Shown piece by piece: positions 55,933 to 56,981 of a stretch of 64,000 bases of DNA. The DNA comes from a virus, in the IMG/VR virus record IMGVR_UViG_3300032285_001029, positions 32,001 through 96,000 of that record; one strand, written 5' to 3'. Below the pieces are notes generated by a model. The model was not told the DNA's origin. It was given only the letters and a program-made list of their open reading frames with translations, and made no database searches. The first letter of the stretch is position 1. Each line of letters starts with the position of its first letter. Made by a program: the position numbers and the translations under genes.

Positions 55933-56754
55933 ATGGCTATAAATCCCTTACAAAAGTACTTTCGTCAACCAAAAGTCTATATCAGTTTACCTAGTAAAGG
56001 TGTGTATTACTCTGCAGGAAATTTACAAGGTAACATTGAACAGATACCAGTATACGGTATGACAGGCATGGACGAAATTATGGCTAGAACTCCGGATGCA
56101 TTATTATCAGGAGAAAGTACAATTAAGATTGTAGAGAGCTGTTGCCCTACTATTAAAAATGCTTGGGAAATTGTAACTATTGACTTAGAAACTATACTAA
56201 CTGCTATTAGAATTGCAACGTATGGTAACTTGTATGGAGTAGAAACAAAATGTCTACAGTGCGGTGAAGAACACGCTTACGACATCGACTTAAATCAATT
56301 TATAGATCATTATAAGAATTGTACTTACGAAAATAAAGTAGTGCTAAAAGACTACACTATCAACTTACGCCCTATTACGTATAAAGAAACGTCGGAGTTT
56401 TCAATAAAAAACTTTGAGATACAACAAAAGTTTAAGCAAGTTAATCAGATGCCCGAAGGCGATGAGAAAAAACTTATAAGTGATCAGCTGTTTAAAGATA
56501 TTGTACAACTACAAAAAGAAATCTTCAGCGCAGGAATTGAATCAGTTGAAGCAGGTTCCCAGACAGTTAATGAACGTTCTTATATTAACGAATGGTTAGA
56601 CAACTGTGAAAAATCTGTATTCGATCATATCAAACGGCAATTGAATACAATTAATAAAGAATGGACACCGCCTGCTACAAAAGTAAAATGCACAGCATGT
56701 GGGCATGAACAAGAAGTGTCTGTTACATTGGATCAGTCTGATTTTTTCGTCTAA
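55933..56754 (+). CDS. gp26: Baseplate hub assembly protein (gp26-like)
   Basis: ISLPSKG, MTGMDE, D...ILTAIRIATYG, CLQC and CTAC motifs, ends DFFV; GGAG RBS. Confidence 0.8.
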   Translation: MAINPLQKYFRQPKVYISLPSKGVYYSAGNLQGNIEQIPVYGMTGMDEIMARTPDALLSGESTIKIVESCCPTIKNAWEIVTIDLETILTAIRIATYGNLYGVETKCLQCGEEHAYDIDLNQFIDHYKNCTYENKVVLKDYTINLRPITYKETSEFSIKNFEIQQKFKQVNQMPEGDEKKLISDQLFKDIVQLQKEIFSAGIESVEAGSQTVNERSYINEWLDNCEKSVFDHIKRQLNTINKEWTPPATKVKCTACGHEQEVSVTLDQSDFFV

Positions 56755-56804
56755 GCCTAATTAAATTAAACAACGAAGAAATTAGCGAGTATTTAATTAG
56801 GCTT
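56742..56804 (+). other. Putative programmed -1 ribosomal frameshift signal
   Basis: T TTT TTC heptamer (56742-56748) in gp26 phase; perfect 14-bp inverted repeat at 56753-56766 / 56791-56804. Confidence 0.75.
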
Positions 56805-56981
56805 GAACAGTTTATATCTAGATTCAAAGAAGAACTACTTAGAGTAAGCTGGTATATGAGGGGTTCAGTTACTTACGATCAAATGCTATATCAGTACAGT
56901 TATGATGATCGTGCAGCAATGTATGAAGTAATCAAAGAAAATATTGAAGCTACTAAAAACTCTGGAATGCCGTTAATTTAA
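56742..56981 (+). CDS. gp51-like frame with no own start, probably translated by -1 frameshift from gp26
   Basis: Not in ORF track. 79 open codons FFRLSLIKLNNEEISEYLIRLEQF...SWYMRGSVTYDQML...DDRAAMYEVIKENIEATKNSGMPLI*, bounded 5' by a TGA immediately before the slippery site. Confidence 0.75.
   Translation, partial: FFRLSLIKLNNEEISEYLIRLEQFISRFKEELLRVSWYMRGSVTYDQMLYQYSYDDRAAMYEVIKENIEATKNSGMPLI

Follow-up and report, generated by a model that had tools for sequence, protein, structure and literature searches.

Hub assembly genes and tail frameshifts in described phages

The systems closest to the locus reported here are those of phages T4 and lambda. In T4 reviews, gp26 and gp51 are listed as hub assembly chaperones, gp51 being required and absent from the particle. 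The two T4 proteins are paralogues, and gp51 (249 aa) is the long form that carries a C-terminal extension compared with the short gp26 (208 aa). Both belong to the Pfam family PF12322 (T4_baseplate), with E values of 8.8e-64 for gp26 and 3.9e-52 for gp51; in the latter, the family match covers residues 1–201 and is followed by about 48 C-terminal residues, a tail that precomputed annotation assigns to PF28602.

In lambda, ribosomes slip by −1 at a heptamer close to the end of a tail-assembly gene, which yields a short form (gpG) and a C-terminally extended form (gpGT). Chaperones of this type bind the tape measure, their extension binds the tube protein, and they do not form part of the virion. 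Such a −1 frameshift of tail assembly chaperone genes was reportedly found by Xu, Hendrix and Duda in 2004 to be conserved among long-tailed phages. To our knowledge, a frameshifted tail chaperone, common in long-tailed phages, has long been taken to be missing from T4-type phages. In full-text searches of literature other than subscription journals, no description of a frameshift in the genes for gp26 or gp51 was found.

Here, we describe a gp26-like gene of a T4-related phage that, judging from its sequence and that of its relatives, is very probably decoded in two ways, giving a 273-aa short form and, by a −1 slip, a 349-aa long form that would match the gp26/gp51 pair of T4. A programmed −1 frameshift at the heptamer T TTT TTC had been proposed in a sequence-only reading of the locus, and this proposal is strongly supported by comparative evidence and by natural long forms encoded in one frame.

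The gp26-like gene and its surroundings

The window is a stretch of 64,000 nucleotides (positions 32,001 to 96,000 of IMG/VR record IMGVR_UViG_3300032285_001029). The record has 141,855 bases and is estimated to be 38% complete, so the phage genome would be roughly 370 kb. The source is an uncultured giant phage related to T4. No isolate phage was matched when the region was searched at the nucleotide level. The features discussed below are collected in Table 1.

Table 1. Features of the gp26-like locus and other elements of the window
Feature	Position	Strand	Description
Putative tape measure protein gene	53905..55872	−	655 aa; divergent neighbour
T4 late-promoter consensus TATAAATA	55897..55904	+	29 nt 5' of the gp26-like ATG
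Other copies of TATAAATA	6684–6691, 17549–17556, 52151–52158	−	
Ribosome-binding site GGAG	55924–55927		gp26-like gene
gp26-like gene, zero frame	55933..56754	+	273-aa short form; PF12322 T4_baseplate, phrog_150 baseplate hub
TGA of the −1 frame	56739–56741	+	Closes the −1 frame right before the heptamer
Slippery heptamer T TTT TTC	56742–56748	+	X XXY YYZ phase of the zero frame
−1 frame extension	56742..56981	+	79 codons and TAA (56979–56981)
Zero-frame stop TAA	56752..56754	+	3 nt past the heptamer
5' stem arm AAGCCTAATTAAAT	56753..56766	+	14 bp, 4 nt past the heptamer
Stem loop	56767–56790	+	24 nt
3' stem arm ATTTAATTAGGCTT	56791..56804	+	Pairs with AAGCCTAATTAAAT
First ATG of the −1 frame	56856	+	Codon 39
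Giant ORF	23276–32032	−	2918 aa
Giant ORF	32084–39964	−	2626 aa
SegE-type ORF	58627–59070	−	PF19835, E 1e-31
gp46/SbcC-like gene	59337–61115	−	

The protein encoded in the zero frame matches PF12322 with an E value of 1.5e-18 and 67.7 bits, which is above the curated cut-off of 24.5 bits for this family; in a search of whole genomes, the gene scored 66.8 bits. The T4 late-promoter consensus occurs 4 times in the window, compared with 9.9 copies expected by chance, and at least three of the four copies lie directly 5' of an ORF start in the correct orientation. This placement points to late transcription in the style of T4, in which the tape-measure-like and gp26-like genes would have divergent promoters between them, like T4 genes 26 and 51.

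The divergent neighbour was annotated by its position, its size and weak language-model matches. Among named language-model clusters, those closest to it are tape-measure families (0.91–0.92); it has no family match in Pfam, and BLASTP against T4 gp29 and RaK2 ORF088 gave none. We treat its identification as a putative tape measure protein as a lead. The arrangement recurs in RaK2, 121Q and PA5oct, where the portal gene is followed by a gene for a virion protein of 650–800 aa and then by the gp26-like gene in the divergent orientation. The gp26-like pair had been said to lie divergent from a tape-measure-like gene, and the two do lie on opposite strands.

Other elements were observed in the window. 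Its structural region holds two giant ORFs. An ORF resembling SegE-type GIY-YIG homing endonucleases lies near the gp46/SbcC-like gene, with an 88-aa ORF in between.

The predicted slip site in the window

The gp26-like gene ends with the codons GAT TTT TTC GTC TAA. The elements on which the frameshift proposal had been built are all present in the sequence: the in-phase heptamer in this ending, the perfect 14-bp stem with its 24-nt loop starting 4 nt 3' of the heptamer, and the −1 frame that is closed by TGA and then open for 79 codons, with its first ATG at codon 39. A slip at the heptamer would add 77 residues, and the product lengths computed for the two decodings agree with those proposed earlier (273 and about 349 aa). 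In short, the window has what is expected of a canonical −1 site, namely a phased heptamer, a downstream structure and a −1 ORF with no conserved start.

The spelling NNT TTT TTC is rare in the window. Among the 23 Phe-Phe pairs encoded by its 28 long ORFs, it is used only once, at the 3' end of the gp26-like gene. The stem is AU-rich and moderately stable, with a folding energy of −16.5 kcal/mol (z = −2.5); 3 of 200 shuffled sequences fold equally well. A search of positions 56600–57000 against Rfam gave zero matches. For the slip product, the predicted tryptic junction peptide is CTACGHEQEVSVTLDQSDFFR, followed by LSLIK, whereas the C-terminus of the zero-frame protein ends in FFV.

Conservation of the heptamer and codon choice

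The nearest isolates in tblastn searches, at 22–32% identity, are RaK2-like and allied jumbo phages (RaK2, K64-1, 121Q, PBECO4, GAP32, CBB, Atu_ph07, Phosso, PA5oct, Xoo-sp13 and SCTP-2). Closer loci were found in IMG/VR, with 80 at 43–54% identity and a further 22, more distant, retrieved via another query. In all, 85 distinct relatives were compared, including RaK2, 121Q, PA5oct, Atu_ph07, CBB, SCTP-2 and others, together with about 70 metagenomic phages. The heptamer is present in phase in all 85, as T TTT TTC in 83 and as T TTT TTT in two (Xoo-sp13 and RAS14), at a distance of 3–33 nt from the zero-frame stop. The site thus recurs across the group and is not confined to the window.

The protein accounts for part of the T-run, because the gp26 family, T4 included, has Phe-Phe as an invariant pair of residues. 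One alternative is that the run merely encodes the conserved pair and that the downstream frame is not expressed. Codon usage was compared in 58 distinct sequences with 43–54% protein identity. In this set, the two Phe codons never vary from TTT TTC, and the codon 5' of them always has T as its third base, whichever residue it encodes (Asn, Ser, Asp or Gly). Elsewhere in the −1 ORF, conserved residues are encoded by two to six synonymous codons each; for example, Tyr38 is TAT in 31 sequences and TAC in 23, Arg40 uses six codons and Gly41 four. Just 3' of TTC, the zero-frame codon takes 12 GNN forms (Val, Glu, Gly, Asp or Ala), whereas the −1 frame at this point always reads Arg (CGN). A free zero-frame codon over an invariant −1 residue implies that the −1 frame is under selection from the heptamer on, 5' of the zero-frame stop.

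Further points against mere coincidence are that T4 spells its own Phe-Phe pair TTC TTT, that the −1 ORF protein is conserved among relatives at 25–50% identity and is predicted to fold at pLDDT 90, and that the extension also occurs fused in frame. Given the matches to the extension profile, the in-frame fusions and the codon selection in the 58 sequences, coincidence is effectively refuted, and we assign it next to no probability.

A distant gp26 homologue from a 484-kb uncultured phage (LR756508) was also observed, at about 2200–2500 of that locus. It ends in NFLFPTE, without a slippery run, and an extension-like ORF (containing LIYYSNGGYSWYN) with its own ATG overlaps the gene end in the +1 frame.

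RNA structure downstream of the heptamer

The stem of the window was counted explicitly for covariation in an ungapped alignment of 61 sequences. It is paired in 75.5% of cells, compared with 20–46% when the 3' arm is slid by 1–3 columns. Changes on both sides of a pair occur in 83 cells, compared with 37 ± 7 in shuffled alignments, and none of 500 shuffles reaches 83. One compensating change converts GCCTAAT/ATTAGGC to GCCTGAT/ATCAGGC.

RNAalifold run on all 61 sequences returned zero consensus structure, because several clades use other stems. These clades have different helices at the same spacing, with energies of −30.7 kcal/mol in Atu_ph07 and −23.4 kcal/mol in locus L098. In one marine clade, the predicted structure is weak (−7 to −13 kcal/mol). 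The stem is thus widespread without being present in every clade. The sequence-only reading had suggested aligning the 3' ends of gp26 homologues, and the comparison of the 85 relatives bears out its expectation for the heptamer and the start-less −1 ORF, with the stem limited as just described.

The heptamer and the stem also bear on a transcriptional route to the long form, in which RNA polymerase would add one U within the T run. The site is indeed a homopolymer run, and this run reaches seven T in Xoo-sp13, RAS14 and Rhodothermus phage RM378. Against this route, the six-T run of the window is shorter than the runs known for efficient polymerase slippage; the T run always stands in X XXY YYZ phase, and position 7 is invariably C in the 58-sequence set; and a covarying RNA stem lies at frameshift-type spacing. 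We regard polymerase slippage as highly improbable, and a slip of the ribosome is the reading followed below.

The −1 extension as a protein

In the 85 relatives, the −1 ORF has 72–82 codons and is closed 0–18 codons 5' of the heptamer. Its protein sequence is conserved at the identities given above. AlphaFold2, supplied with 58 homologues, predicts the extension alone as a three-helix unit with a pLDDT of 89.9. Searches of the extension against Pfam and PHROGs gave zero matches, and Foldseek against BFVD found small unnamed phage proteins only.

These properties may also be read as those of a separate small gene, a "mini-gp51" translated by coupling or re-initiation after the gp26 stop, with no fusion protein made. 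Database annotation favours this reading: small ORFs of 41–70 aa are annotated in 121Q, Atu_ph07, Xoo-sp13, SCTP-2, RAS14, CBB, Kaldavass, Yen9-04, Vibrio 2.275.O, S-PM2, P-SSM2 and KVP40, and no mark of slippage was found in the database records of the relatives. An ATG that overlaps, abuts or follows the zero-frame stop is present in Atu_ph07, 121Q, the cyanophages and KVP40, and it is possible that in these phages a separately started small protein is made.

The start positions speak against a separate gene. In the window and in 50 of the 85 relatives, the first ATG is codon 39, which lies within the conserved motif WYMRGG, and a start there would delete the long first helix; in the other relatives, the first ATG is scattered. 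The starts annotated in GenBank differ from phage to phage, and some are TTG or CTG. No start position of the −1 ORF is conserved among the 85 relatives. Two residues of the −1 ORF situated 5' of any start, Arg3 and Leu6, are invariant or nearly so, and the overlapping zero-frame codon is free. A separate gene also leaves the invariance of the heptamer at synonymous sites without explanation, and it does not account for natural in-frame fusions that are collinear with the predicted slip product. Taken with the annotated ORFs and the nearby ATGs, this evidence makes a separate gene quite unlikely in our judgment.

The fusions were found by searching the extension profile against 1.84 billion representatives. 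The search gave 320 protein matches, mostly short mis-called ORFs. Among the 150 matches listed, out of the 320 in total, 20 are in-frame long forms of 319–351 aa with the extension at the C-terminus (P0111, P0116, P0141, P0195 and 16 others). They are metagenomic cluster representatives, P0195 coming from a contig of 327 kb. Six were scanned against Pfam, and all six carry PF12322. Their junctions read xFR (MFR, LFR, NFR, SFR and others) and not FFR, the slippery run being lost, so these proteins are not one-base assembly errors. In the xFR lineages, the long form appears from the sequences to be hard-wired, with the slippery run gone.

For one natural long form, AlphaFold2 with 94 aligned sequences gave a pLDDT of 96.1 and a pTM of 0.92, meaning that the whole chain, including the extension, is predicted as one confident unit. 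The existence of natural in-frame long forms indicates that a slip product of this layout would be viable. A viral scan with P0116 found further loci of the frameshift type only, and no relatives of the natural fused forms were found in the metagenome and viral scans.

Comparison with T4 and T4-type phages

The likeness to T4 concerns both the proteins and their genes. In both cases, the short form stops just past the invariant FF, and the long form runs through an xF(K/R)-L-L/I junction into a helical tail; in both, the neighbours are hub and tape-measure genes, and transcription from a late promoter is divergent. The difference is that T4 has two divergently transcribed genes, whereas the window and the RaK2-like genomes have one gene with a slip site. 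Consistent with this, complete genomes of RaK2, Atu_ph07, PA5oct and 121Q each contain one PF12322 gene, and that of T4 contains two. The FF codons of T4 gp26 are non-slippery, and gene 25 lies directly 3'. The extension of the window is about 25 residues longer than the tail of T4 gp51.

Profile comparisons of the extension with gp51 were less clear. Against the gp51 C-terminus, hhalign gave a weak match (E 3e-4, probability 39%, 55 collinear columns), and an extension-only comparison gave P 0.006. The full-length fused profile matched the gp51 family at E 1.4e-4. HMMER gave 2–6 bits for the extension against gp51, which is not significant, and the extension profile against the single T4 gp51 reached a probability of 3%. 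The earlier label "gp51-like" is supported for the extension by the gp51 paralogy with its C-terminal extension and by the gp51 annotations in cyanophages and KVP40; direct profile evidence for it is weak.

The cyanophages S-PM2 (NC_006820) and P-SSM2 (NC_006883) and Vibrio phage KVP40 (NC_005083) are informative in this respect. Each has one PF12322 gene, in which T TTT TTC stands in phase 3 nt ahead of the stop, and each has a −1 ORF of 59–62 codons that is annotated as a separate "gp51" of 55–57 aa. The KVP40 record notes a small ORF similar to the C-terminus of T4 gp51. When aligned with gp51 C-termini, these −1 ORFs match from the junction (FFR/VFK) as far as the motif M-x-P-x-ER. They differ from the window in having an ATG 5–6 codons past the heptamer and two genes in the records; the window has no such ATG near the heptamer, and it is for this reason a cleaner case for a slip than the cyanophages or KVP40. 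It is likely that the three pairs represent the same frameshift, mis-annotated as two genes.

Two other phages depart from this layout. Salmonella phage Vi01 has an extension-like −1 ORF without a canonical heptamer (GAA ATT TTC ATT TAA), and RM378 has its seven-T run with the downstream ORF in the +1 frame. Such layouts may reflect recoding by another route, two separate genes, or sequencing errors in homopolymers.

Comparison with lambda and likely role

The sequence-only reading had considered the pair to be the equivalent of lambda G/GT. The likeness lies in a −1 slip, predicted for the window, at a heptamer close to the end of a tail-assembly gene, in the short and C-terminally extended forms, in the position beside a tape-measure-like gene, and in the fact that the product is not reported in two virion proteomes of relatives. 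At the level of family or fold, the searches gave no support for the equivalence. No tail-assembly-chaperone family was matched, as Pfam and PHROGs give the baseplate hub family only. Structural searches with Foldseek against the PDB and with VIA-align wide gave nothing above noise, the best VIA-align wide result being Z 8.3 over 57 residues of a helical hairpin. The gp26-like protein, which contains two CxxC pairs, is roughly double gpG in size. Gene order differs: lambda G/GT has the tail tube gene on one side and the tape measure gene on the other, all in one orientation, whereas the gp26-like gene diverges from the tape-measure-like gene. The lambda parallel is best taken as an analogy only, one of logic and not of ancestry.

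Evidence on the role of the products comes from T4 and from virion proteomes. In the virion proteome table of CBB, the neighbour of the 720-aa class is listed with 29 peptides, and the gp26-like protein and the next ORF are not listed. The PA5oct record carries an ESI-MS/MS note on the neighbour only and not on the gp26-like gene. In the record of Acinetobacter phage Octan, gp51 is named "tape measure protein assembly chaperone". T4 genetics and the absence from two virion proteomes make it reasonable to regard the gp26-like products, by analogy, as a putative two-form assembly factor for the hub and the tape measure.

Proposed mechanism and significance

In the mechanism that we propose, most ribosomes would read GAT TTT TTC GTC and stop at TAA, releasing the short form. 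Some would stall on T TTT TTC, where the stem 4 nt downstream would hold them, and the two tRNAs would each move back by one base. The slipped ribosomes would then read CGT (Arg) and 77 further codons, producing the long form with its added three-helix domain. The two forms would be the counterparts of T4 gp26 and gp51, both of which T4 requires for building its baseplate hub around the tape measure, and the slip would set their ratio from a single late transcript. It is important to note that in this scheme we infer the slipping itself, its efficiency and the chaperone role.

A broader reading concerns the T4 superfamily as a whole. In this reading, gp26/gp51 was ancestrally one recoded gene, which has been kept in the jumbo RaK2-like phages, the cyanophages and KVP40, and the T4 pair and the metagenomic in-frame forms are derived, hard-wired versions. 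We lean slightly towards this history.

If this history is true, T4-type phages use an unrelated protein to achieve the ratio-setting known from other long-tailed phages, and the small "gp51" genes in many genomes would be mis-annotated halves of a trans-frame product. If the frameshift itself is true, the conserved tail-assembly frameshift would be extended to the T4 superfamily in a protein family unrelated to lambda gpG, and it would become clear why nothing more than a "gp51" of 55–57 residues is apparent in cyanophages and KVP40. The annotation of a core structural gene would be corrected in about 100 isolate genomes and many metagenomic phages. The roles of the short and long forms become directly testable, for example in RaK2, PA5oct and KVP40, and there would be a reason at the level of function for the two paralogous hub-assembly proteins, 26 and 51, of T4.
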